A stretch of DNA of 64,000 nucleotides from Candidatus Latescibacterota bacterium (GCA_965206595.1 OZ242214.1:5886675-5950674); one strand, 5' to 3'; positions 3,300-17,853 are shown, numbered from the stretch's first letter. Numbers and translations: made by a program. The notes: generated by a model from the sequence alone, not told the origin.

Positions 3300-4439
3300 C
3301 GATATGAACCCCCCATCCTTCTCCGACCTCCTCGCCTGTGGCCATTTCGACAAGCAGCCCTGTGAGCATTTTTCCATGGAGAACGACCTTGATGACGGGA
3401 CCTGGGCGCGGTTCAGCGGACGCGCCAAGATCCCGGAGGCGATGGATAGGGTAGAGTGGCCCTCCGAAACCTCGGCCTGATCGACGCGCAAGACCGCATG
3501 ACCCACGCCGGGGCATGGCTTGTTGCACGAGACATTCGGACGTTCACGACCAGTGCCCACGTGTCCTGTGCCCTGTTCATGGGCACCGAGAAGGTCAGGA
3601 TTCTCGACCGGCGGAACTTCCACAGCGACATCCCGGCGATGATTGACGAGGTAGTGGCCTGGATTCTCACCAAAATCAATGTCGAATTCATCATCAGGCA
3701 CGTGAGGCGGGAGGAACGGCCGGAATTGCCCGAAGAAGCCCTTCGGGAAGCGGTGGTGAATGCCGTTGCACACCGCGACTACCGCTCGACCGCAAACGTC
3801 CGGATTTACGTCTTCAAGGATCGGATCGAAATCGTCAGTCCAGGCGGGTTGCCCGAAGGGATGGGGGAAGCGGATCTGGGCACCAAGAGCGTCCCCCGCA
3901 ATCCGCTGCTGTTCGGCATGTTGTACCGAATGGATGTGGTGGAGCAGATCGGTTCCGGCATTCGGCGCATTCGGGAGCAATGTCGAGAGCACGGGGTGGC
4001 GGAGCCGGTGATCGAGGTGTCCGAGCACTGGGTTACCACAACCTTCAGGCGCCCGGTCGCAGACGTCGGGAGCAAGTCGGGGGCAAGTGGGGACCAGGTC
4101 GACAACGCCATATCTGACAATACGTTACAATATTCGGGGAACCCTCCCGGGGATTCGACCTTACAAGTGGAGGACCAGATCGGAACCAAGCAAGCACTAA
4201 GTAGGCACCAAGTTGGAATTCTCCGTAACTCCTTGAACGAGCAGGCAATTACGGAGTTGATGGTACTGGCGGGGAAAAAAGATCGCACCAAGTTCAGGAA
4301 CCAAGTGCTCAGGCCCCTGCTGGAGGAGGGGTTGCTGGAGATGACCGTCCCCGACAAGCCCCGAAGCAGCAAGCAGAAGTACCGGGTGACGGCACGGGGC
4401 AGGGACCTGTTGGCGGAGTTGGACAGAAAGCCGGATTGA
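3300..4439 (+). pseudogene. 5'-truncated and frameshifted copy of the AlbA_2/HATPase_c_4 (RecG-C-terminal-like) gene
   Basis: ORFs 3289..3480 and 3456..4439 together align to residues ~115-488 of the full copy at 5565..7031 (…VNAVAHRDYRSTANV…VEQIGSGIRRIREQC…); N-terminal AlbA_2 domain absent; C-terminal wHTH tail differs and is AT-richer. Confidence 0.6.
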
Positions 4440-4489: not shown

Positions 4490-4667
4490 CTGGGGCTATG
4501 AGGCGATGCACCCGGACCGGAATACCATCACCATCGCCGGACGACCTTTGCATGGGAGCATTACCCCGCGGAGCCGAATGTCACACTTGGTTGTGGTTAT
4601 GGAAAAAGGCAAGGTCGTAGAAATCGAGCCGGATCCCGAGATGTACGGCGAGCATCCGGAGAAATAG
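4490..4667 (+). pseudogene. Remnant of a zeta-toxin gene (P-loop deleted, large internal deletion)
   Basis: Homologous to the 5' end (incl. upstream 'ggggatatgag…') and last ~80 nt of the gene at 2407..3132; 20-nt P-loop-coding deletion and ~0.5-kb internal deletion. Confidence 0.6.
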
Positions 4668-5442
4668 TGCAACAGGTTGCAGCACAATTGAACGAGGCGC
4701 CCCCATACCGGATCACCCCCGAGATCCTGTCCCTGGTGGAGCGGATCGGCGAGGGCATCGGGTGGGCGGAGGCTTCCGGCGTCGCGCAGGATCTGCGGCT
4801 GCGGCGTATCAACCGCATCCGCACGATACAGGGATCGCTGGCGATCGAGGGGAACACCCTGACCGAGGGACAGATATCAACGCTGCTGGATGGCAAACCG
4901 GTTGCCGGACCCCTGCGGGAAATCCGGGAAGCTCGCAACGCCATCAAGGCGTGCGACGTGTACGAGGCGTGGGATCCGGCAAACGAGGCCGACCTCCTTG
5001 AGGCGCACCGCATCCTGATGGCCGGCCTGCTGGACAGGCCGGGGAGTTACCGCCGCGGCGGGGTTATGGTCGGAGGACCTGGAGGGGTCCATCACGTCGG
5101 CCCGCCGCCGGCGCGGGTGCCGGAGCAGATGGGGAGGCTGCTGGAGTGGGTGGGAAGTGCCGGAGAGCATCCGCTGATTTCCAGTTCGGTCTTTCTCATT
5201 ACGAGTTCGAGTTCATCCATCCCTTCGAGGACGGCAACGGCCGCATGGGTCGGCTATGGCAGACGCTGATCCTGACGCGCTGGCGGGACCTGTTCGCTCA
5301 TCTTCCGGTGGAGAGCCTCGTTCACGCCCGTCAGAGCGCTTACTATGCCGCCATCCGCGAGAGCTCGGCCGCGGGGGAGAGCACGCCCTTCATCGTATTC
5401 ATGCTGGAAATCATCCGGCTTGCCGTTACGGAGCAGACCTGA
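4667..5442 (+). pseudogene. Fic/Doc family protein (AMPylator-type), interrupted by a frameshift near 5200
   Basis: ORF 4667..5269 (frame 2) continues as ORF 5146..5442 (frame 1), which holds the Fic motif HPFEDGNGRMGR; frameshift in a T/C-rich stretch. Confidence 0.7.
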
Positions 5443-5564: not shown

Positions 5565-7031
5565 ATGAATGAAACCCTCCTCAGCCTGATCACCCTCGGC
5601 GAAGGCTTCACAACGGAGTTCAAGCGCTCTTTCCCCTCCGACCTGGGCACCGAAATCTGCGCCTTCGCGAATTCCACGGGCGGCGTAATTCTGCTCGGCG
5701 TGACGAACGAAGGGGAGACCGTAGGCATTGGGAACCACAACAAGCTGAAATCGCAGGTCCAGTCTACCGCGCGTTCGGCGGAGCCACCGATTGCGGTCGA
5801 AGTGGAATCCGCCGGCGACGTGCTCTGCGTGACCGTGCCCGAACAGCACGGGAAGCCCTATTCCTTCGGCGGAAGGTTCTACATCCGCGAAGGGGCCAAT
5901 TCTCAGCAGATGTCCCGCGACGAAATCCGGGAGTTCTTCTACAAGGAAGGACTCATTCGCTTCGACGAGACGCCTTGCCAGCGCTTCGATCTCCAACGCG
6001 ATCTGACGCCGGAAGCGTGGTCTCGATTCGCCGGGCGGGCTCGAATTCCTGACGGCATGGAGCCGCTGACGGCGCTGGAAAACCTGCATCTTGTCGTTGA
6101 TGGAAAGATGACCCACGCCGGAGCGTGGCTGCTGGCGGACGATATCACCCGGTACAGCTTGCAGGCAGGGGTGACCTGCGCCCTGCTGCGGGGGGTGACC
6201 AAGACGCACATTCTCGATCTCAAGAACTTCACCGGCGATCTCTACTCGATCTACGAGGATTGTGTGGCCTACGCACAGGCCAAACTGAACACGGCGCTGA
6301 TGCCGCACGTTCGCGGCAGGGATGAGCGTCTGGAGCTGCCCGAGGACGCGATTCGCGAAGTATTGGTGAACGCCATCGCGCACCGGGACTATCGATCTAC
6401 CGCCAACGTGCAGATGTACGTGTTCCACGACCGGTTGGAAATCGTGACGCCGGGCGGGTTGCCCGCAGGAATGCGCGAAGAGGATCTGGGCGTCAAGAGC
6501 GTGCCGCGGAACCGGTTGCTGTTCGGGATGTTTCACCGCATGGGGATGGTGGAGCAGATCGGCAGCGGAATCAGGCGCATTCGACAGGAGTGCCGCGACT
6601 ACGGGGTGGCGGAACCGGTGATCGAGGTATCCGAGCACTGGGTGACCATGACCTTTCAAAGGCCGTCCGCACAAATCGGTGAGCAAGTCACGGCGCATGT
6701 CAGGGACCGAGTCCATGCAGGGCCAGAGTCAGGGCCAGAGTCAGGGCCAGAGTCAGGGCCAGAGTCAGGGCCAGAGTCAGGGCCAGAGTCAGGGCCAGAG
6801 TCACTGGAACTGCGCGTCCTGGCGCTGCTGATCGAAGAACCTCTTTCGAGATCCGCCATAGCTGATGGTTTGGGACACCAATCCGTGTCGGCCGGCCTCA
6901 ACAGAGTGATCCGCAACCTGGTGCGTGACAGGCGTATTGCGTACACGGTCCCGGACAAGCCGGGCAGCAGGCTTCAGAAGTACCGGATTACGCCAGCCGG
7001 GAGATCGGCGCTCGAAGAGCCAGCCAAGTGA
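5565..7031 (+). CDS. AlbA_2 (divergent AAA-4) + HATPase_c_4 + C-terminal wHTH protein (RecG C-terminal-like / Schlafen-like putative DNA-binding ATPase), 488 aa
   Basis: N-terminal …TEFKRSF…GGVILLGV… (AlbA_2-like); central …VNAIAHRDYRSTANVQMYVF…MVEQIGSGIRRIRQEC… (HATPase_c_4-like); stops 22 nt before hsdM. Confidence 0.7.
   Translation: MNETLLSLITLGEGFTTEFKRSFPSDLGTEICAFANSTGGVILLGVTNEGETVGIGNHNKLKSQVQSTARSAEPPIAVEVESAGDVLCVTVPEQHGKPYSFGGRFYIREGANSQQMSRDEIREFFYKEGLIRFDETPCQRFDLQRDLTPEAWSRFAGRARIPDGMEPLTALENLHLVVDGKMTHAGAWLLADDITRYSLQAGVTCALLRGVTKTHILDLKNFTGDLYSIYEDCVAYAQAKLNTALMPHVRGRDERLELPEDAIREVLVNAIAHRDYRSTANVQMYVFHDRLEIVTPGGLPAGMREEDLGVKSVPRNRLLFGMFHRMGMVEQIGSGIRRIRQECRDYGVAEPVIEVSEHWVTMTFQRPSAQIGEQVTAHVRDRVHAGPESGPESGPESGPESGPESGPESGPESLELRVLALLIEEPLSRSAIADGLGHQSVSAGLNRVIRNLVRDRRIAYTVPDKPGSRLQKYRITPAGRSALEEPAK
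6721..6804 (+). repeat. In-frame 12-bp tandem repeat (ggccagagtcag x7) encoding (GPES)7
   Basis: Seen directly; perfect copies, last unit ends in c; lies in the linker before the C-terminal wHTH of the 5565..7031 protein. Confidence 0.95.
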
Positions 7032-7053: not shown

Positions 7054-9169
7054 ATGTCCCAACTCGAACATATCGACGCCATCGAGAAGCGCCTCTGGGA
7101 AGCGGCGGACACGCTGCGGGCAAACTCCCCATACGCCAGCAACGAGTACTTCCTGCCGGTCATGGGCCTGGTGTTTCTGCGCCACGCCTACAGCCGCTAC
7201 CTGGCGGTCAAGGACAAAGTCGAAGCCAGCCTGCCGACCCGGGGCGGCAGGAAACGGGCGCCGACCAAGGAGGACTATTCCCGGCAGAGCGCCATCTTCC
7301 TGCGCCCCGAGGCCCAATTCGACAATCTGGTTGGCCTGCCGGACGGAGAGGACCGCGCCAAGGCCGTCATCGCGGCGATGGACTCCATCGAGGAGGATTA
7401 CCACAGCCTGCGCGGCGCCCTTCCCAAGGCCGAGTACCAGGAGCTGGACAACGACGTGCTCGGCCAGCTCCTGCGCACGCTCAACCCCGACCAGCTGAAG
7501 CAGGTCTCGGGCGACGTTTTCGGACGCATCTACGAGTATTTCCTGACCAAGTTTGCGGATTTGAAAGCCCACGACGACGGCGAGTTCTTCACCCCCGTGT
7601 CGCTGGTCTCGCTGATCGCTCATGTGCTCGACCCCGACCGCGGCACCGTGCTCGACCCGGCCTGCGGTTCCGGCGGCATGTTCGTGCAGAGCGCCCGCAC
7701 CGTGGAGGAGCACGGCAGCAGCCCTGCCGAGCGGCTTACCTTCCGCGGCCTGGAGAAGAACGCCACCACCATCCGCATCGCCCGGATGAACCTCGCCGTC
7801 CACGGCCTCGAGGGGGACATCCGGCAGGCGATCACCTACTACGAGGATCCGCATCAAATGGTGGGAAAGGCCGACTACGTGATGGCCAATCCTCCCTTCA
7901 ACGTCGACGAGATCGACGCCGACAAGGTGGAGACCGACCCGCGCCTGCCGTTCGGCCTGCCGGGAGTCAACAAGAAGGAGAAGGTCTCGAACGGCAACTA
8001 CGTCTGGATCAGCTACTTCTACAGCTACCTGAACGAGAAGGGGCGGGCCGGCTTCGTCATGTCGTCGCAGGCATCCAGCGCCGGCGGGACCGAGGCGCAG
8101 GTGCGGCGGAAGCTGATCGAGTCCGGCGACGTCGACGTGATGATCGCGGTGCGCTCCAACTTCTTCTACACCCGCACCGTGCCCTGCGAGTTGTGGTTCC
8201 TCAACCGCAACAAGCCCGGGGAGTTTCGCGACAAGGTGCTGATGATCGACGCCCGCGATGTCTATCGAAAGGTCACCCGCAAGATCTACGACTTCAGCCC
8301 CGAGCAGGAGCAGAACCTGCTGGCCATCGTCTGGCTCTACCGGGGCGAAACGGAGCGCTATCTCGATCTCGTCTCCCAGTACCTGTGGGACGTTGCCGAG
8401 AATGGAAGGGCCTGTTACGAAGGGATGAGCGTAAACGGCAGGACCTGCCGGCCGCTGCCGGAGTTCATGGAAGCCGTCGCCGCGCTCCGGGAGGACCTGT
8501 CCCCGTTCCTGAAGACCCGGCCGAGGATCGGCCCGCACGCCGAAATCTTCGCCGAGCTGGCGAAGGAGCAGAAGCAGTTCGGAGGCATCCTCAGGAGGTT
8601 CCAGGCTCGGGCCGCCAAGGCGCAGGAACAGTGGGAGCGGGCTCCCGGCACCAGCGCCGGATTGAACAAGCTGGTGGAGCGGTTCGCACCGGCTGGCTGA
8701 GAGCAGCCGCGACCTCGCCGGGCAGTCCGACCAGCTCTACAAGCTCGCCAACCGCCTGATCGAGACCTGCGAGCAGGAGGAGGACGCGAAGGCGAGCGAC
8801 GCCTGGAACGGCCGCGGTATTACCCGGGCCAGGAAAGCGGTCGACGATGCCCGCCGGCAGGCCATCGAGCAGCTCGAACAGGTGCACTACTTCCACCGGC
8901 AGGCGCGCTGGCTCACGGAGCGCTTCCCCGAGGGAGAGTTGCGCGACGTGGAAGGGCTGGTCAAGCTGGTGGACCGCGCCGAGATCGAGGCCAACGACTG
9001 GAGCCTGACTCCGGGCCGCTACGTCGGCGTCGCCCCCGAGGAGGAGGAGGAAGGGTTCGACTTCAAGGAAGCACTTCGAGAGATCCACCTTGAGCTGGAG
9101 GACCTCAACGCCGAGGCAGTGGTGCTGGCGGAGAAGATCAGAAAGAACTTCGAGGAGCTGGGGGTATGA
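7054..9169 (+). pseudogene. hsdM: Type I restriction-modification N6-adenine methyltransferase HsdM, interrupted by a 4-bp tandem duplication (GGCT)2 at 8691-8698
   Basis: MSQLEHIDAIEKRLWEAADTLR… N-terminus and NPPF motif (VMANPPFN); frame 1 stops at 8700; C-terminal ~168 codons (…DWSLTPGRYVGV…) continue open in the +1 frame from 8666 to 9169; deleting one GGCT unit restores one 704-aa ORF. Confidence 0.8.
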
Positions 9170-9235
9170 AGAAGCGAACCAATCTGCGGCCGGGGGGTTT
9201 CGGCGCGGCACACTGGCACTGCCGCCATAAGAAAC

Positions 9236-9492
9236 AGGCTGTTGCACAATTGAACGAGGCACCCCAATACCGGATCACCCCCCAGATACGGTCCCTGGTG
9301 GATCGGATCGGGGAGGGCATAGGGCGGGGCGAAGGCTTCCGGCGTTGCGCAGGACCTGCGGGTTCGGTGTATCAACCGCCCACCAGAGCGCGAACTCTTC
9401 CGCCGACCGGGAGAGCTCGGCGGAAGAGTTCGGCCTTTATCGTATTCATGCTGGAGATCAACCCGTTTGCGGTGCCGGGGGATCAGACATGA
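9236..9492 (+). pseudogene. Fic/Doc gene remnant (5' ~50 codons joined to 3' ~20 codons, internal deletion)
   Basis: ORF 9166..9492: …QAVAQLNEAPQYRITPQIRSLVDRIGEGIG… plus …FIVFMLEI… match the N- and C-termini of the Fic gene at 4667..5442. Confidence 0.6.
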
Positions 9493-9628: not shown

Positions 9629-10774
9629 ATGAAATGGACACCTCGAACTCTTGATGAACTTGGCTACGTTAGCCGGGGCAGGTCTCGGCACAGGCCAAGG
9701 GATGCCGCCCACCTTTACGGCGGCCCTTACCCTTTCATCCAGACAGGGGATATAAAACACGCAAGTCTCTATGTAAATAGTTACTCGCAGACCTACACGG
9801 AGGCCGGACTTGCCCAGAGTCGTCTCTGGAAAGCGGGAACACTATGCATAACGATTGCCGCAAATATTGCGGACACGGCGATTCTCGCCATTGATGCCTG
9901 CTTTCCAGACAGCGTTATCGGCTTCATCCCCGACAATGAGAAAGCCGATGCCCGTTTTCTCAAATACCTGTTTGATGCGACGATTCAGAAACGAATCAAG
10001 CAGTTCACTCAAGGCGCCACGCAGGACAACCTTAGCCAAACCAAGCTCCTGTCACTCCAATTCCCCATTCCAGACGTGGCGGAACAACTCCGTATTGCCG
10101 ACCTCCTGTCAGCCTACGACGACTTGATGGAGAAGAACCGGCGCCGGATTCAGTTGCTGGAGCACGCTGCGCGACTGCTCTACAAGGAGTGGTTTGTCCA
10201 TCTTCGCTTCCCTGGAAATGAGAACGTCAAGATCAAGGACGGTGTGCCGGAGGGATGGGAGAGGAAGACGTTGGGCGATTTAGTAGAGGTGACAAAGGGA
10301 AGGAACATTACCAAAAATTCAGCTAAGGATGGCTCTGTGCCCGTTGTTGCTGGGGGCTTATCTCCAGCCTATTATCACGATACGGCCAATGCGGTTGGAC
10401 CAGCCATCACTATTAGTGCATCTGGAGCCAACGCCGGATACGTGAACCTCTACTACGAGGACATTTGGGCATCTGACTGCTCTTATATCAGTACTACATC
10501 AACGGATCGTCTGTATTACCTTTACTTACTCCTCAAGTCGAAACAGAGGGAGATCTTGGGATTCCAGAAGGGCGCAGCACAGCCTCACGTTTACCCAAAG
10601 GACTTGAAAAGGTTGCCGTTGTTGGCTCCAAAGAATATCGTCGTGAATATGTTTGAAGAATCAGTAGTGGCAGACAATTTTCATCAAAAGGTCTTGGTCG
10701 AACAAAACAAACTACTGGTGCAAGCCCGAGACCTGCTTCTGCCGCGTTTGATGAGTAGAAAGGTGGCGGTATGA
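9629..10774 (+). CDS. hsdS: Type I R-M specificity subunit HsdS (two target-recognition domains)
   Basis: 381 aa; conserved central and C-terminal HsdS helices (…LAEQLRIADLLSAYDDLMEKNRRRIQLLE…, …LVEQNKLLVQARDLLLPRLMS…); GC drops to ~50%. Confidence 0.85.
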   Translation: MKWTPRTLDELGYVSRGRSRHRPRDAAHLYGGPYPFIQTGDIKHASLYVNSYSQTYTEAGLAQSRLWKAGTLCITIAANIADTAILAIDACFPDSVIGFIPDNEKADARFLKYLFDATIQKRIKQFTQGATQDNLSQTKLLSLQFPIPDVAEQLRIADLLSAYDDLMEKNRRRIQLLEHAARLLYKEWFVHLRFPGNENVKIKDGVPEGWERKTLGDLVEVTKGRNITKNSAKDGSVPVVAGGLSPAYYHDTANAVGPAITISASGANAGYVNLYYEDIWASDCSYISTTSTDRLYYLYLLLKSKQREILGFQKGAAQPHVYPKDLKRLPLLAPKNIVVNMFEESVVADNFHQKVLVEQNKLLVQARDLLLPRLMSRKVAV

Positions 10775-11544
10775 GCGTATCCTACCCAACCAAACTTCGC
10801 CTAGCTTATCGAAGCGGGGACAGATGCGCCCTTCCCGGTTGTGGGCAGCAATTATCGCCAACGGGCGAAGGCGGCATTCCTAGCAATGTGGGAGAGTACG
10901 CACATATCGCCGGAGAACATAGCGGTAGAGTACGGGGCCATCGGTCCGCTCGCTACGATCCAAATATGACTGAAGAGGAGAGGAACGGCTACCACAACCT
11001 GATTTATTTATGTGCGAACTGCCACAGAAGAATAGACGCTATTCCACAGGGAGAACCAGACTATCCTGTGGAACGTCTCCAGGAGATCAAAGCCGAGCAT
11101 GAGCTAAGGGTTAGCGAGGCAATGGCTGAGGCATTCGCAGATGTCGGCTTCCCTGAACTAGAAGAAGCCACTCTATGGATCATGCAACTTATTCCTCAAC
11201 AACCGGATAGTGACTTCACGGTAATTGCACCCGAAGACAAACTAAAGAAGAACGAATTAGGAAACGCCTCTCGAAATATCATCACAATGGGCCTCAGTGT
11301 TTCGCGGGAGGTTCGAGCATTTATTGAAAATACAGCACAGGAAGATCATAATTTTCCAGAACGTCTGAAGTCAGGATTTCTTGAGGAGTACTACCGACTG
11401 AAGAAAGAGGGGCATTCAGGGGATGATCTTTTCGACTTGATGTGTCGATTTGCACAAAGAGGCTTCACAGAGGAAACAAAGAGGTCTGCTGGGAAGGCAG
11501 TGATGATTTACCTATTTGAGACTTGTGAGGTGTTTGAGAAATGA
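10771..11544 (+). CDS. HNH-nuclease effector protein (N-terminal HNH, C-terminal alpha-helical domain), 257 aa
   Basis: HNH motif C-x2-C … H … N … C-x2-CH (…CALPGCGQ…EYAHIAGEH…NLIYLCANCHRRID…); start overlaps the hsdS stop (ATGA); AT-rich. Confidence 0.7.
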   Translation: MSVSYPTKLRLAYRSGDRCALPGCGQQLSPTGEGGIPSNVGEYAHIAGEHSGRVRGHRSARYDPNMTEEERNGYHNLIYLCANCHRRIDAIPQGEPDYPVERLQEIKAEHELRVSEAMAEAFADVGFPELEEATLWIMQLIPQQPDSDFTVIAPEDKLKKNELGNASRNIITMGLSVSREVRAFIENTAQEDHNFPERLKSGFLEEYYRLKKEGHSGDDLFDLMCRFAQRGFTEETKRSAGKAVMIYLFETCEVFEK

Positions 11545-11768
11545 TTCTTCCGTCGAAGCACATTTCCCAAGACCAATCACTGATCGGCGTCGGTGCTATT
11601 CTACTAAAGAAGATTGGTAGGCCCCAGACCGTAACCAGCCTTTGGGAGACCGTCCGCGAGGAAGATGCGATAGGTACGTTTGAACGGTTTGTACTAGCGC
11701 TTGACATGCTTCACATCGCCGGAGCTGTAGCCTTGGAAAATGGCCTGATCGTAAAGGTGAAAAAATGA
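11541..11768 (+). CDS. Small helical protein (75 aa), candidate 'middle component'
   Basis: ATGA overlaps with both neighbours; no recognisable motif. Confidence 0.5.
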   Translation: MILPSKHISQDQSLIGVGAILLKKIGRPQTVTSLWETVREEDAIGTFERFVLALDMLHIAGAVALENGLIVKVKK

Positions 11769-13525
11769 TCCATAGTATTACCGCTAACCACTCCTCATTC
11801 AATCCCGTCGAATTCACGTCGGGCTTGAACGTGATCTTAGCAGATCGCACTGAAACTTCGACACAAAAAGACACACGAAATGGTCTTGGTAAGTCTACAC
11901 TAATTGAAATTATCCACTTCTGCCTAGGCTCCAACGTTCAAAAAGGTCAAGGGCTTTCAATAGAGCCACTACGGGATTGGGAGTTCACCTTGGAGATTAC
12001 ACTCGCGGGTAACCGTGTGAAAGTAACTCGCGCCGTTGCTAGATCTAATATTTTTGTCATAGATGGCACGACGACTGGTTGGATTGATCAACCTGATTGT
12101 GAGGATATGTTTGGAAAGAAACCAATCAGATTAAAATTGGATCAATGGAGGGCACTCTTGGGGAGGGCACTATTTGGGTTATCGCCATCTGACGAACCCC
12201 ATAGTTACACGCCGTCTTTTCGGAGTCTGCTTTCTTATTTTATAAGATTGGGGAATGACGCTTATGATGATCCCTTCCGAAATACGCGACAGCAGCAACC
12301 GTGGAACGTTCAGCTCCATGTCGGATTTCTTCTTGGCTTGAACTGGGAGAACGCGGCGAGATGGCAGGAGCTTAAGGACCAGGAGAAAGGCGTGAAGGCA
12401 TTTAGTCAAGCAATCAAGTCTGGTGTCACGGAATATGCACGGGGTTCGGTTGGCGAATTGGAGGCTGAGCGTGTTCAGTTGGAAAGTCAATTAGAGCAGG
12501 AGTCCCATGCACTACAAAATTTCAAGGTTCACCCTCAATATGAGTCTATTCAGCAAGAAGCGGACCGGGCCACAGCGATCATTCACAACTTAACTAATGA
12601 TAACGTCGTTGGTCGCAGACGATTGGCACGCTATAGGGAATCTGTTGCAGCGGAAAAGCCCCCATCGGATACCGCAATCGATGAACTGTATAAGGAGGCA
12701 GGCGTTGTTTTTTTTGAAGCGACTCGTCGCACTCTAACGGAAGCGAAGGAATTTCATTCTAAGATCGTGGAGAACAGGCGAGCTTTCCTTGAGATGGAAA
12801 TCGTACGCTTGGAACGACAAATTGAGAATAGAAACAATGACATCAGAAAATGGACCGACACCAGGGCTACTTCGCTGGAAATCCTAAGAACACATGGTGC
12901 TCTACAAGAGCTGACCAAGCTACAAGAGCGCCATGCAGGTACGCGAGAAAGACTGGAAAGTACACGTACGCGAATTTCAGAAATTAGGAATTTGACGGCG
13001 CAGAAGCGTAAGGTTCTAGTTGAGAAGACCGAACTAGCTCAGATTACCGAGCGGGATCACGAGCAACGCCGAGACGTTTGGAACACTCCAGTACGTTTCT
13101 TCAACGACAATTCTCAAGCTTTATACCAAACACCTGGACACTTGGTGATTGACATCGGTAGAGCCGGTTTCAAATACGATGTCGAGATAAACAGGAGCGG
13201 CAGTGAAGGCGTCAATAAGATGAAAATATTTTGCTTCGATTTGATGCTCGTGCAGCTCACGCCGATACGGAACAATCCAATTGATTTTCTGATTCATGAC
13301 AGTGGTCTTTACGATGGCGTTGACTCTAGGCAGCGGGCCCTTGCGCTTGAGCGCGCATGTGAAGTGTCCGAGGCAACCGATACACAATATATTTGCACAC
13401 TTAATTCTGATATGGTTCCGCGAGATGACTTCAGTCCCGGATTTTACTTCGATAAATATGTCAGACTGACGCTTACTGACAAGAATCCCTCCGGCAGTCT
13501 TCTTGGCTTTCAGTTCGAGATGTAA
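11765..13525 (+). CDS. ABC/SMC-like ATPase with a central coiled coil (586 aa)
   Basis: N-terminal Walker A NGLGKSTLIEII; ~200-aa coiled-coil insert; C-terminal signature-like SGSEG, Walker B IDFLIHDSG and D-loop LYDGVD, as in Rad50/SMC/ABC-3C-type ATPases. Confidence 0.75.
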   Translation: MIHSITANHSSFNPVEFTSGLNVILADRTETSTQKDTRNGLGKSTLIEIIHFCLGSNVQKGQGLSIEPLRDWEFTLEITLAGNRVKVTRAVARSNIFVIDGTTTGWIDQPDCEDMFGKKPIRLKLDQWRALLGRALFGLSPSDEPHSYTPSFRSLLSYFIRLGNDAYDDPFRNTRQQQPWNVQLHVGFLLGLNWENAARWQELKDQEKGVKAFSQAIKSGVTEYARGSVGELEAERVQLESQLEQESHALQNFKVHPQYESIQQEADRATAIIHNLTNDNVVGRRRLARYRESVAAEKPPSDTAIDELYKEAGVVFFEATRRTLTEAKEFHSKIVENRRAFLEMEIVRLERQIENRNNDIRKWTDTRATSLEILRTHGALQELTKLQERHAGTRERLESTRTRISEIRNLTAQKRKVLVEKTELAQITERDHEQRRDVWNTPVRFFNDNSQALYQTPGHLVIDIGRAGFKYDVEINRSGSEGVNKMKIFCFDLMLVQLTPIRNNPIDFLIHDSGLYDGVDSRQRALALERACEVSEATDTQYICTLNSDMVPRDDFSPGFYFDKYVRLTLTDKNPSGSLLGFQFEM

Positions 13526-13665
13526 AGTGAAGGGTAGATTTACAGTCTCTGGTCTCATAGACGCAATGGTCAATGGAAAGGGTATCTCCAGATTGACCTT
13601 TTCCCATCTGAAGATCAGGAGGCCAGGGTCAACCTTGATGAAATGAGAAAACAAGGAGGTGACCC

Positions 13666-14562
13666 GTGAACATACGCGAGTACCACCAACTCCAGGCGGA
13701 ACGGACCACCCTGGATGATTTGCTCGAGCGGCTACCCCCGGAAAATGTGATCGAACGAACCGGTCTGGAATTCCGGAAGAAGGAGGTGGATGAAGCACTC
13801 GCTTCGCGTCCGGAGCCCTCCAGAAACCCCACCCGGGTGTGTCTGACCTTTCGCGGAAAACCCATCGCAGGATCCCATGGGATTTTCGCGGATTTCGGGG
13901 CGGAGGCCGTTCAGGCATTTACGAATATGGTTGCCACCATGGGCGCCAGCCAACATGCACCGCTCGGGTCGCGTGGTGCGATACCCAACCGTGAGGAGTA
14001 CCGCCTGCTGATTACCGGCACGGCATCAGGATCGTTCGGTTTCGAGCTGGAAGAGGCCAGGTATGACCTCTTTCCCGAATCTTCTCCGGTCGAGTCCGCA
14101 ATTGTCCAAACAATGACAATTCTTGAGGCTACGGTTGGAGCAGACGAAGTATTGGCGAATGCCGTTTCCGAAGCCGACCCGCGAGCGCTTGAGGCGCTGC
14201 GTGGGTTCTTGGAAACGATGGCGGATCAAGACGCGGTGTGCACGGTTGAATTCAACGACGATGTTTTCCGGTTTGTGGACGTTGGCCAGGTCCGACGAAG
14301 CGAAAGCCGCCTGAGTCCGGAGAACATTCATGAAGAAGTGCGGGAAATCACAGGGCGCATTATTGGGGTATTGCCCTTCCGTCGTACGTTCGAATTTCTG
14401 GAAGATGAAACAGGAGAATTGATCTCGGGCCGGATCGATCGCGCTATCGAAGATGCTGCGGAAATTGATCAGTTTCTCAACAGATCCTTGAAGATCCGCG
14501 TGGATTCCAAACAGGTAGGAACAGCAAGGCCTCGTTACGTCCTTTTGGAATACGACATATAA
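13666..14562 (+). CDS. Hypothetical acidic protein (298 aa), no recognisable domain
   Basis: GTG start 8 nt after AGGAGG; lies between the ATPase gene and hsdR; intermediate GC (~57%). Confidence 0.55.
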   Translation: MNIREYHQLQAERTTLDDLLERLPPENVIERTGLEFRKKEVDEALASRPEPSRNPTRVCLTFRGKPIAGSHGIFADFGAEAVQAFTNMVATMGASQHAPLGSRGAIPNREEYRLLITGTASGSFGFELEEARYDLFPESSPVESAIVQTMTILEATVGADEVLANAVSEADPRALEALRGFLETMADQDAVCTVEFNDDVFRFVDVGQVRRSESRLSPENIHEEVREITGRIIGVLPFRRTFEFLEDETGELISGRIDRAIEDAAEIDQFLNRSLKIRVDSKQVGTARPRYVLLEYDI

Positions 14563-14598
14563 CGGCATTTGATCCTTGGATCCCCCAAGCATAGGGCT

Positions 14599-17500
14599 AT
14601 GACCCCGACTCCCTATACCGAGGACAGCCTCGTCCAGCAGACCACCGCCAACTACCTGGAGCAACGCCTGGGCTGGGAGTCAATCTACGCCTACAACCAC
14701 GAGGACTCCGGTCCCGGCAGCCTGCTCGGCCGCGCCTCCGGCCGCGAGGTAGTGCTGGAGCGGACGCTTCGCGCGAACCTCGCGGAGCTGAATCCGGGCC
14801 TGCCCGCATCCGCATACGACGACGCGGTGCGGCAGATCACCGCTGTCTCCGCCTCCCAGACCCTCGTCGCCGCCAACCGTGAGAAGTACAAGCTGGTACG
14901 GGACGGCCTGCAGGTGGTCTTCACCAACGACCGGGGCAAGCGGAAGACACGCCTCCTGCGGCTGTTCGACTTCGCCGAGCCGGCCAACAATCATTTCCTG
15001 TGCGTGCGCGAGCTGTGGGTGCAGGGGGATCTCTACCGCCGCCGCGCCGACATCGTCGGCTTCGTCAACGGCCTGCCGTTGCTGTTCATCGAGTGCAAGA
15101 ACATCCACCGCGACCTCAAGGCCGCCTTCGAGGGGAACTACTCCGACTACCGCGACACCATTCCCCACCTCTTCCACCACAACGCAGTGGTGATGTTCGC
15201 CAACGGCGAGAAGGCGAACATCGGCTCCATCACCAGCCGCTGGGAACACTTCTACGAGTGGAAGCGCCTGGCCGAGGAGGAGCCGGGTGTGGTCGACATG
15301 GAGACGCTGCTCAAGGGGGTCTGCGACAAGCGCAACTTCATGGACTTGGTGGAGAACTTCATCCTCTTCGACGATTCGACGGGAGAGACGCGGAAGATTC
15401 TGGCCCGCAACCACCAGTTCCTCGGCGTGAACCGGGCCGTCGAGGCGGTGCGCGACCGCGAGAAGCGGCAGGGCCGGCTCGGCGTCTTCTGGCATACCCA
15501 GGGAGCGGGCAAGAGCTACTCGATGGTGATGTTCACCCGCAAGGTTCATCGCAAGCTGGGGGGCAACTTCACCTTCCTGGTGCTGACCGACCGGGACGAT
15601 CTCGACCGCCAGATCTACAAGACCTTCGCCGGCTGCGGCGTGGTGGATCACGATCGCGACCCCTGCCGGGCCGCGGACGGAAAGCACCTCGGCCGGTTGA
15701 TGGCCGAGCACAAGTCCCACGTCTTCTCGCTGATCCAGAAGTTCAACCTGGACCCGGGCGCCGGCTACACGATGCGCGGGGACATCATAGTCATCAGCGA
15801 CGAGGCGCACCGCACCCAGTACGGCACCCTGGCGCTCAACATGCGCAACGCCCTGCCAAACGCCGGCTACATCGGCTTTACGGGCACGCCGCTGTTCACC
15901 GAAGATGAGATCACCCGTCGCGTCTTCGGCGAGTACGTCTCGACCTACGACTTCCAGCGCGCGGTGGAGGACGAGGCCACGGTGCCGCTCTACTACGACG
16001 CCCGCGGCGACAAGCTGGGCGTTGCCATCGGCGACCTGAACGAGCGCATCGCCGACAAGCTGGATGAGTTCGACATCGAGGACGTCGACGTGGAGCAGCG
16101 CCTGGAGCAAGACCTGAAGCGGGACTATCACGTCGTCACCGCGGGCAGGCGTCTCGACCAGGTAGCGCGGGACTTCGTGCAGCACTATTCCGCGGCCTGG
16201 GAGACCGGAAAGGCGATCCTGGTCTGTATCGACAAGATCACCTGCGTGCGCATGCATGGGCTGATCGAGCGCTATTGGAACGAGCGCATCGAGGAACTGG
16301 AGGAGGAGAAGAAGTGGACTGACGACGAGCAGGAGGAGATTTATCTCCAGCGGCAGATCGAGTGGACGCGGGAGACCCGCATGGCCGTGGTGGTGAGCGA
16401 GGATCAGGGGGAGGTGGCGAAGTTCCGCAAGTGGGAGCTGGACATCACCCCGCACCGGAAGCTCATCAAGAATGGTATGGAACTGCCCGAGTCGATGCGC
16501 CGCAAGCCGCAGTTCCGCCGCAAGCAGCGGATGGCGGTCGACGAAGCCTTCAAGGCGGAGGAGCATCCGTTTCGCATCGCCATCGTTTGCGCCATGTGGC
16601 TGACCGGTTTCGACGTGCCGAGCCTTTCCACGCTCTACCTCGACAAACCGCTCAAAGCCCACACCCTTATGCAGGCCATCGCCCGCGCAAACCGGGTCAA
16701 CGAGGGCAAGAACAACGGCCTGATCGTCGACTACTGCGGCATCCTCAGGCACCTGCGCAAGGCCCTGGCGACCTTTGCCGGTACCGCCGACGGAGGAGGA
16801 GGTGGTGGCGGTCCCGGTCAAGAGATTGATCCTGTGCAACCGGGAAAGGAGCTGCTCGCTGGCCTCGCCGAAGCGATTGCCATGGTGCGCGCTTTCCTCG
16901 AAGAACGCCGTGCGCCGCTCGACGATGTCATCCATAAGACCGGCTTCGAGCGCAACGCCGCCATCGTGGCCTGCAAGGAAGCGGCCAACGAGAACGACGA
17001 GACCCGCAAGCGCTTCGAAGTGATCTGCCGCGAGGTTTTCAGGAAGTTCAAGGCCTGCATCAACCTGCGGGGCGTCAACGCCTACCGGGGGGATCGCGCC
17101 GCCATCGACGCCGTCTACCGGAGCCTCCAGCAGGACCGCGAGCAGGCCGACATCACCGACATCATCCGCGCCCTGCACGGAGTGGTGGACGAGGCCATCG
17201 ACCTGCGGCAGGAACGCACTAGGGATAGTCATCGGGATCCGTTGGACATCAGCCGGATCGACTTCGACCGGCTCAAGCGGGAGTTCGAGGGCAGCCCCGC
17301 CAAGCGGACGACAGTGCAGTCCCTCAAGGAGGCAGTGGAGGAGAGGCTCCGGCGCCTTTTGGCCCGCAACCCGCTACGGACCGACTTCCAAAGACATTTC
17401 GAGGAGATAGTCAGAGAGTACAACCGGGAGAAGGAGCGGGTGACCATCGAGCATACCTTCGAGGCATTGCTCAACCTCGTGAAGGAGCTGGATGAGGAGG

Positions 17501-17853
17501 AAAAGCGGGCCTTGAACATGGGATTGAACGAGGAATCGCTGGCGATCTACGATCTTCTGCAGAAACCGGATCTCGGGGCGCGTGACATCAACCGCATCAA
17601 AATGGTCTCCATTGAGCTGCTGCGAACGTTGAAAGAGGGGAAGCTCCGCGTCGAACAATGGCGCGAAAAGGAGGCGACCCGGGCCGCGGTCAAGGGAGAG
17701 ATCCAGGACTTCCTGTGGAGCGACGTAACCGGGCTGCCGCCCGACAGCTACACGGATGACGATGTGCAGGTGAGGGTGGACGGCGTTTTCGGCCACGTAT
17801 ACCGGGCCTACCCTACGGTGCCATCACCTTTCTACATGAGCGACGCCGCGTGA
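14599..17853 (+). CDS. hsdR: Type I R-M restriction subunit HsdR (helicase/nuclease), ~1084 aa
   Basis: N-terminal …EDSLVQQTTANYLEQRLGWES…; DEAH box (IVISDEAHRTQYG); helicase motifs; start placed at the internal Met. Confidence 0.9.
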   Translation: MTPTPYTEDSLVQQTTANYLEQRLGWESIYAYNHEDSGPGSLLGRASGREVVLERTLRANLAELNPGLPASAYDDAVRQITAVSASQTLVAANREKYKLVRDGLQVVFTNDRGKRKTRLLRLFDFAEPANNHFLCVRELWVQGDLYRRRADIVGFVNGLPLLFIECKNIHRDLKAAFEGNYSDYRDTIPHLFHHNAVVMFANGEKANIGSITSRWEHFYEWKRLAEEEPGVVDMETLLKGVCDKRNFMDLVENFILFDDSTGETRKILARNHQFLGVNRAVEAVRDREKRQGRLGVFWHTQGAGKSYSMVMFTRKVHRKLGGNFTFLVLTDRDDLDRQIYKTFAGCGVVDHDRDPCRAADGKHLGRLMAEHKSHVFSLIQKFNLDPGAGYTMRGDIIVISDEAHRTQYGTLALNMRNALPNAGYIGFTGTPLFTEDEITRRVFGEYVSTYDFQRAVEDEATVPLYYDARGDKLGVAIGDLNERIADKLDEFDIEDVDVEQRLEQDLKRDYHVVTAGRRLDQVARDFVQHYSAAWETGKAILVCIDKITCVRMHGLIERYWNERIEELEEEKKWTDDEQEEIYLQRQIEWTRETRMAVVVSEDQGEVAKFRKWELDITPHRKLIKNGMELPESMRRKPQFRRKQRMAVDEAFKAEEHPFRIAIVCAMWLTGFDVPSLSTLYLDKPLKAHTLMQAIARANRVNEGKNNGLIVDYCGILRHLRKALATFAGTADGGGGGGGPGQEIDPVQPGKELLAGLAEAIAMVRAFLEERRAPLDDVIHKTGFERNAAIVACKEAANENDETRKRFEVICREVFRKFKACINLRGVNAYRGDRAAIDAVYRSLQQDREQADITDIIRALHGVVDEAIDLRQERTRDSHRDPLDISRIDFDRLKREFEGSPAKRTTVQSLKEAVEERLRRLLARNPLRTDFQRHFEEIVREYNREKERVTIEHTFEALLNLVKELDEEEKRALNMGLNEESLAIYDLLQKPDLGARDINRIKMVSIELLRTLKEGKLRVEQWREKEATRAAVKGEIQDFLWSDVTGLPPDSYTDDDVQVRVDGVFGHVYRAYPTVPSPFYMSDAA

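Follow-up and report, generated by a model that had tools for sequence, protein, structure and literature searches.

The window analyzed here, a stretch of 64,000 nucleotides from Candidatus Latescibacterota bacterium (GCA_965206595.1 OZ242214.1:5886675-5950674), carries between hsdS and hsdR of a type I restriction–modification (RM) operon three genes that encode a nuclease effector, a small protein, and a coiled-coil ABC ATPase. With a probability of roughly 0.8, this triad is a short (type II) Lamassu anti-phage defense system, i.e., an ABC-three component (ABC-3C) system with an HNH effector, which resides as cargo in the RM operon. The triad is horizontally acquired and belongs to the class that combines HNH plus CTD10, a family of C-terminal domains (CTDs), with the middle component (MC) family MC6 and the family DUF2326, which equals PDC-M68 of PADLOC. 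Pfam, PGAP, PADLOC, and the published classification of Lamassu already list the family, of which the present triad is a real but ordinary member. Its three genes are arranged as follows (lengths in amino acids, aa):

10771–11544, + strand: LmuA-like effector of 257 aa, with a Cap5/SPARHA-type HNH domain (~1–120) and a helical ABC-3C CTD10 (~150–257)
11541–11768, + strand: LmuC-like middle component (ABC-3C MC6) of 75 aa, Pfam PF20293
11765–13525, + strand: LmuB-like SMC/Rad50-type ABC ATPase of 586 aa, DUF2326/YydD family

The open reading frames (ORFs) are exactly those of the initial annotation, which had described three overlapping genes of 257, 75, and 586 aa chained through ATGA after hsdS. 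ATGA start/stop overlaps occur at all three junctions, i.e., hsdS/effector, effector/MC6, and MC6/ATPase, and the triad genes are intact and translationally coupled. An AT-rich block had also been described, and this holds for the triad itself, whose GC content over 10771–13525 is 47.6% versus 64.8% in hsdM, 63.3% in hsdR, and 64.2% in the whole window; however, the low GC does not begin at 10771 but already inside hsdS (51%). Chance ORFs are effectively excluded, on comparative grounds, by hundreds to thousands of homologues and by a gene order that is kept in ~70 of 78 loci, a set drawn from a scan of one genome per species in which neighboring genes were located by tblastn with the window proteins.

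Profile hidden Markov model searches assign every part of the triad (MC6, DUF2326, HNH plus CTD10, and PDC-M68). ABC-3C systems were defined through the Pfam MC (MC1-7) and CTD families (Krishnan et al. 2020, as cited in later papers). Type II Lamassu systems (LmuA-LmuC-LmuB, corresponding to DdmA-DdmB-DdmC) are ABC-3C systems, and the Pfam CTD and MC families classify the C-terminal domains of LmuA and LmuC, respectively. The 75-aa protein of the window matches Pfam MC6 at 7e-15, with 55.2 bits against a cutoff of 27.2, and by tblastn its gene lies directly upstream of the ATPase gene in 75 of the 78 loci. Its plasmid homologues are named 'ABC-three component system middle component 6' by PGAP, while no PADLOC model matches this component. 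Both the effector and the middle protein had initially been regarded as unusually compact; however, their sizes are the norm of the family, since the MC6 model itself spans 76 positions and effector homologues measure 240–260 aa.

The ATPase matches Pfam DUF2326 at 1.9e-35 and the PADLOC model PDC-M68B at 6.7e-215 over residues 1–584 of 586. The Walker A motif GLGKST and a C-terminal motif stretch, both named in the initial annotation, are located at residues 40–45 and 506–520, respectively. The latter reads IDFLIHDSGLYDGVD and comprises Walker B FLIHD512 (508–512), Ser513 rather than Glu, and a D-loop (514–520), and a signature-like SGSEG is present at 478–482. Short LmuB proteins are ~600 aa in length and carry a Walker B of the form hhhhD[Q/S/T/E] (PMC12663957), with zero to two zinc hooks (PNAS 2025 Lamassu study); a CxxC zinc hook is absent from the present ATPase. 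More than 2,200 homologues are found in the protein collection, many of them labeled 'YydD (DUF2326 family)'.

Structures were predicted for the ATPase and for a 298-aa protein encoded downstream of it. The AlphaFold2 model of the ATPase has a mean predicted local distance difference test (pLDDT) score of 73.6, with confident heads and long helices, and places between the head halves a coiled-coil helical insert of ~260 aa (residues ~194–453), which exceeds the ~200 aa of the earlier estimate. When the model is compared with the PDB by Foldseek, the top match is YydD of B. subtilis (9a6c, an integrative YydD-YydB model; 6.7e-23), followed at ranks 2–5 by LmuB (9ux7_A, 9hqx_B/f, and 9hqu_A; 2.3e-10 to 7.9e-9), with Rad50, SMC, JetC, AriA, and RecN below both. 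The template modeling (TM) scores of the LmuB matches are low (0.32–0.40) because coiled coils are flexible. The best PADLOC LmuB model matches the ATPase at 4.2e-14 over residues 13–412, and the others match only the N-terminal part of the head.

The effector matches PADLOC PDC-M68A at 3.6e-85 over residues 1–256 of 257, and its N-terminus is also recognized by the PADLOC SAVED-HNH models of Cap5-type CBASS (down to 1.9e-19). In Pfam, HNH_2 and ABC-3C CTD10 are both sub-threshold in the present copy; when homologues are scanned singly at E<=0.01, HNH_2 is detected in 21 of 24 and CTD10 in 12 of 24. An alignment of 24 effector homologues displays C19, C24, H45, N76, C81, H85, and D89 as invariant and C84 as nearly invariant, with H45 in the conserved strand GE-x-A-H45-I, and the pattern, which includes the catalytic His, Asn, and His and the zinc-binding cysteines, is that of a His-Me finger with a CX4C...CX2CH zinc site. 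All nucleotide-binding and HNH metal-finger residues of the triad are conserved. The effector family profile matches, over residues 1–126, the SPARHA HNH nuclease 9om4 in the PDB at 2.4e-17 and the Cap5 structures 7rwk, 8fm1, and 7rwm at 7.9e-10 to 4.6e-6; the HNH nuclease initially proposed for the 257-aa protein is, by this profile, homologous to solved Cap5/SPARHA nucleases.

The HNH nucleases of Cap5 and SPARHA are activated by tetramerization, and the same HNH clade has been noted in ABC-3C effectors (SPARHA paper). HNH is listed among the effectors of short Lamassu (PNAS 2025 Lamassu study). Membership of CBASS (Cap5) or SPARHA itself was considered and rejected, as only the HNH domain (~1–120) matches, the C-terminal half being CTD10, and no SAVED domain, cyclase, or Argonaute is found among the characterized genes of the operon. 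The effector has 559 homologues in the protein collection, one of them 100% identical. Related loci are referred to below by numbers preceded by L. The effectors of L008, L012, and L034 carry a divergent HNH; in L071–L073, the match is confined to the CTD and the N-terminal domain is not HNH; and in L074 and L076, inspection of the ORFs reveals a non-HNH N-terminal domain with a similar C-terminal motif at the end. Such swapped N-terminal domains on a related C-terminal domain are the modular effector architecture described for Lamassu.

Taken together, the suggestion that the triad is of the ABC-3C or Lamassu/DdmABC type is borne out by MC6 and DUF2326 matches above threshold, by full-length matches to PDC-M68A and PDC-M68B, by the homology of the HNH domain to Cap5/SPARHA nucleases, by a fold near YydD and LmuB, and by the conservation of the triad, repeatedly inside RM operons. 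The features of an ABC-3C system are found, i.e., a coiled-coil ABC ATPase, an MC6 protein between effector and ATPase, an effector that joins an enzymatic domain to a CTD, and a conserved operon. As for short Lamassu, the ATPase has the corresponding length and Walker motifs, and its fold is nearer to LmuB than to Rad50, SMC, or JetC.

The triad is a conserved unit across phyla and on plasmids. The 78 loci belong to Latescibacterota, Acidobacteriota, Gemmatimonadota, Bacteroidota, Planctomycetota, Chloroflexota, Myxococcota, Proteobacteria, and Bacillota and to the methanogenic archaea Methanothrix and Methanoculleus. In ~70 of them, MC6 is directly preceded by an HNH-CTD effector, the coordinates abutting or overlapping, and clustering of neighboring ORFs across the 78 loci yields no conserved fourth gene. 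Homologues are also present on 74 PLSDB plasmids, 31 of which are conjugative, and the PGAP/RefSeq annotation of plasmids reads 'HNH endonuclease', 'ABC-three component system middle component 6', and 'DUF2326 domain-containing protein' in succession. The GC content of the module is below that of its flanks in most loci (median difference -0.058), which fits a horizontally moving defense cassette. Disrupted triads are encountered among relatives as well: L036 and L045 have an effector that is split or has given way to inserted genes, and L042 and L066 have an interrupted ATPase, which indicates frequent decay of the system.

The genes that surround the triad in the window are the following:

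7054–9169, + strand: hsdM, type I methyltransferase, with a +1 frameshift at ~8689–8692 and a probable true start at ATG 7054
9233–9478, + strand: Fic-family remnant, internally deleted, in the hsdM-hsdS gap; outside the system
9629–10774, + strand: hsdS, specificity subunit, the stop of which overlaps the effector start
13541–13669, + strand: DUF6932 remnant, 5'-truncated, last ~40 codons (tblastn), at the right junction of the imported block; outside the system
13666–14562, + strand: 298-aa protein with an OB fold at its C-terminus, from an unannotated family, orphaned DUF6932 partner; outside the system
14569–17853, + strand: hsdR, intact, restriction subunit of the host operon

The host operon is identified by HsdM (Pfam HsdM_N and N6_Mtase; PADLOC MTase_I 6.8e-209), HsdS (Pfam Methylase_S 1.3e-35; PADLOC Specificity_I 5e-96), and HsdR (PADLOC REase_I 1.9e-158), the last of which is 71–75% identical to HsdR of most RM-embedded relatives; the hsdR gene calls of L081 are HSDR_N, ResIII, and T1RH-like_C. 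The hsdM gene, already described as broken, is indeed interrupted: in tblastn with the intact HsdM of L012, the match switches from frame +1 (7054–8688) to frame +2 (8693–9166), and one extra base near 8689–8692, within 'gcaccggctggctga', splits the gene into 7054–8700 and 8693–9169. HsdM is uninterrupted in relatives (699–736 codons), and hsdM is also intact in L089, which has 95% ATPase identity. No long homopolymer occurs at the site, and the frameshift may stem from a sequencing error in a long-read assembly of low coverage, related contigs being labeled 4x-10x.

Upstream of hsdS, the direct repeats D2, D5, and D4 of the remnant at 9233–9478 match, with 79–89% identity, both ends (5' and 3') of the Fic gene at 4667–5442, which is itself split into overlapping ORFs (4667–5269 and 5146–5442). 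Directly upstream of hsdM, a gene at 5565–7031 encodes a Schlafen/AlbA_2 plus HATPase_c_4 protein with seven GPES repeats at ~6700–6790; a stretch paralogous to it lies further upstream at 3456–4439 (76% identity over 300 nt), and similar Schlafen-type genes fill cargo slots of related RM operons (L013 and L089).

The initial annotation placed the module in the gap between the S and R genes of a type I RM operon, a location that recurs for this conserved triad. It is found between hsdS and hsdR in at least 12 loci (L001–L003, L007, L008, L010, L012–L014, L034, L063, and L068), mostly with the same hsdS-stop/effector-start junction and the same RM family, although the RM system of L068 is more distant (~35% identity). 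The recurrence lends itself to the explanation that Lamassu is functionally wired to its host RM system, as an integrated two-layer system rather than an independent passenger, and we judge this unlikely; the more specific version, in which Lamassu is triggered by HsdR-made DNA ends or stalled translocation, or fires when RM is neutralized by anti-restriction proteins, is improbable as well. Such wiring would agree with the overlap of hsdS stop and effector start that is kept across phyla (L001, L007, L008, L010, L012–L014, and L063), with hsdS as the commonest upstream neighbor (cluster of 10) and hsdR as the commonest downstream neighbor (cluster of 5), and with the finding that most of the host RM operons belong to a single family, whose HsdM and HsdR are 64–75% identical to those of the window across distant phyla and archaea. 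It would likewise agree with transcription, as no terminator-like site was found on the + strand from hsdS to the end of hsdR; a promoter scan gave only weak consensus matches (7 versus 4.2 ± 2.2 expected from shuffles), no internal promoter is claimed, and the triad is probably expressed via read-through of the RM operon. However, type I RM is undetected beside the triad in >50 of the 78 loci, and homologues stand alone on plasmids. Moreover, hsdM is frameshifted and the RM partner in the window is probably dead, yet the triad is intact.

The contents of the RM operons in relatives also speak against such wiring, because the same slots carry unrelated cargo, as generic 'embedding' predicts. 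Two slots with hypervariable cargo exist in this family of RM operons, one between the ATPase gene and hsdR (L001, L003, L008, L012–L014, and L089) and one between hsdM and hsdS (L008, L013, and L089). The cargo of the former comprises RhuM/Fic-like genes, an AAA ATPase that is paired with a ~220-aa protein, a 250-aa unknown protein that a transposase may or may not accompany, and a Schlafen-like gene; across both slots, YhcG/DUF1016-like genes, transposases, and unknown genes occur as well, all of these names being readings of ORF sequences and not profile matches. Embedding has been exploited previously in the 'guilt by embedding' screen, in which genes residing within type I RM, BREX, and DISARM loci yielded the PDC candidates (Payne et al. 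2024).

Returning to the Lamassu cassette as independent cargo, its arrival can be delimited at the base level. Positions 10083–13541 are 94% identical in nucleotide sequence to L089, a metagenome contig on which an intact hsdM is followed by a YhcG-like gene, hsdS, the triad, a Schlafen/AlbA_2-like gene, and hsdR. From 13541 onward, the window is instead 93.7% identical to L079, which shares the downstream hsdR, msrA, and hemL and lacks the triad. The left breakpoint (~10083) corresponds to hsdS codon ~151, where the central conserved region of HsdS begins, and the right breakpoint (~13541) lies 16 nt past the ATPase stop, where the similarity passes from L089 to L079. By these breakpoints, the 3' part of hsdS from ~10083 and the Lamassu genes belong to one imported block.

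The 298-aa neighbor had been viewed as a possible extra component of the system, a proposal that does not survive comparison, since the protein belongs to a different, truncated two-gene module. Its ORF has a GTG start with an AAGGAGG ribosome-binding site upstream; the protein has no Pfam, PADLOC, or NCBIfam match and belongs to a family of >900 proteins. As a fourth component of the triad it was rejected, because none of the 78 Lamassu loci contains a homologue and the homologues follow DUF6932 genes instead. In L080 and L084–L088, they are always preceded by a ~195-aa DUF6932 gene with an overlapping start, and in some cases the two are fused; the pair is frequently located between hsdM and hsdS and in other cases stands by itself. 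Pairs of DUF6932 and OB-fold genes are found, e.g., at 9453–10897 of L079, which carries a full DUF6932 copy, and at 7417–8948 of L080. The DUF6932 remnant of the window, located by tblastn, is 55–69% identical to residues ~152–195 of four DUF6932 proteins (E down to 5e-15). DUF6932 is distantly related to PADLOC PDC-M63A (4.3e-12), and the match of its partner to PDC-M63B is marginal (9e-3). The 298-aa neighbor is placed outside the triad because of its pairing with DUF6932 elsewhere and the remnant at the block junction; it is the orphaned half of a different embedded pair that was cut when the Lamassu block recombined in.

The erosion visible around the triad brings in a further explanation, in which the module, carried by a degenerating island, has ceased to be expressed or to function and is an inactive relic. 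The hsdM +1 frameshift, the Fic remnant, and the truncated DUF6932 gene are in line with it, as is the absence of the whole module from the 96%-related locus L079. It is nevertheless very unlikely: none of the three ORFs is shortened or lacks a conserved motif, other assemblies contain copies with 94–97% nucleotide identity (L089 and L081, the latter with all three ORFs intact), and the frameshift is possibly a low-coverage long-read error. That the ATPase is instead a housekeeping DNA-repair or chromosome-maintenance enzyme (a RecN/SbcC/RecF paralogue) with unrelated neighbors, a notion encouraged by its Rad50/SMC fold and by Rad50, SMC, and RecN among the fold matches, is effectively refuted and highly improbable, as YydD and LmuB are the best structural neighbors with RecN only 46th, NCBIfam is silent on RecN, RecF, and SbcC and provides no usable model for the triad proteins or the 298-aa neighbor (for the ATPase only a sub-threshold TrlF match, 22 bits versus 350), in every case the gene is coupled both to MC6 and to an effector of the nuclease-CTD type, and its distribution is patchy and low in GC and includes archaea and plasmids.

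Several points weigh against the assignment to short Lamassu. The PADLOC LmuB matches to the ATPase are weak and partial, and neither a single-sequence phmmer search nor a 23-sequence family profile matches the ATPase to LmuB sequences in the PDB; the ATPase-LmuB link needed the structure model because sequence searches of the PDB found nothing useful. CTD10 in the present effector scores E 1.1e-3 and 20 bits against a Pfam cutoff of 28.1. MC6, with 75 aa, appears shorter than V. cholerae LmuC, of which residues are cited to at least 149, and consequently the DNA-contacting role of LmuC may not transfer to MC6. The surrounding operon is decaying (hsdM frameshift, Fic remnant, and truncated DUF6932), which leaves the expression of the triad uncertain. 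Additionally, the complex, its trigger, and the oligomerization of the effector are drawn from homology only, and neither a functional study of PDC-M68, DUF2326, or YydD nor a published experimental test of the short Lamassu subtype with an HNH effector was found in the literature. The initial annotation had proposed an uncharacterized or variant system; this stands insofar as no published test of the subtype was found, whereas its novelty was overestimated, the family being catalogued as described above.

A mechanism for the triad can be derived from the solved Vibrio and Salmonella Lamassu complexes and from the work on the HNH nucleases of Cap5 and SPARHA. In Lamassu, an A1B2C1 complex holds LmuC and the LmuA CTD at the coiled-coil apex, and DNA-end sensing and slow ATP hydrolysis lead to the release and tetramerization of LmuA (PNAS 2025 Lamassu study). 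By analogy, two ATPase subunits would pair via their coiled coils, and MC6 and the helical CTD of the effector would dock on this pair, which would keep the HNH nuclease monomeric and inactive. Together with MC6, the ATPase heads may then sense foreign DNA ends or replication intermediates, and slow ATP hydrolysis, as anticipated for a Walker B with D-S and not D-E, would free the effector. Subsequently, the freed effector would oligomerize, probably into a tetramer, to form a composite HNH active site, and the active assembly would be expected to cut double-stranded DNA indiscriminately, resulting in abortive infection or plasmid elimination.

The locus provides a clean natural example of a short Lamassu with an HNH effector. 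Furthermore, the base-level breakpoints show the movement of a cassette, in which a block from ~10083 to ~13541 removed the 5' part of another embedded module as it came in, and the locus exemplifies the role of type I RM operons as platforms whose cargo slots are hypervariable. Its contribution as a system is small, since the family is already catalogued and its probable mechanism can be read from the solved Lamassu and Cap5/SPARHA structures. If functional RM-Lamassu coupling were true, the locus would represent a coupled restriction and abortive-infection device and thus a testable case of layered immunity.

Among known systems, Cap5 (SAVED-HNH CBASS) and SPARHA share with the triad a homologous HNH domain, with the catalytic GExAH strand and the CX4C...CX2CH zinc motif (E 2.4e-17 to 9e-6); unlike in those systems, control here would pass from the ABC ATPase and MC6 through CTD10, without a SAVED domain, cyclase, or Argonaute partner. 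B. subtilis YydD (9a6c), the best structural match, is likewise 586 aa long and shares the Pfam family DUF2326; however, it is only 18% identical in sequence, and its partner is YydB rather than an HNH-CTD10 protein. To our knowledge, YydD has no established function. The ABC-3C families of Pfam and PGAP comprise the same MC6, CTD10, and DUF2326, with nothing essential different except that CTD10 is sub-threshold in the present copy. PDC-M68, listed as a phage-defense candidate with a two-family cassette and a count of 33 (Payne et al. 2024 supplement), contains the same two proteins at full length, i.e., effector A and ATPase B, adjacent and embedded in RM as in the hsdS-hsdR gap here; it differs in that two genes are modeled and the middle component is left out.

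Short or type II Lamassu, represented by V. cholerae DdmABC and Salmonella enterica LmuACB (9hqx/9hqu), differs from the triad in the identity of its parts. V. cholerae Lamassu combines a Cap4 nuclease, CTD7, and an apparently larger MC3, as opposed to HNH, CTD10, and MC6, and the ATPase of the window represents the DUF2326/YydD branch, without a detectable sequence match to the solved LmuB chains. The design is otherwise shared: the order of effector, small protein, and ATPase is the same; the ATPase is likewise an SMC-like protein of ~600 aa, with FLIHD-S fitting Walker B hhhhD[Q/S/T/E] and with no zinc hook, as in V. cholerae LmuB; the effector likewise consists of an N-terminal nuclease and a helical C-terminal domain; and the fold of the ATPase matches solved LmuB.

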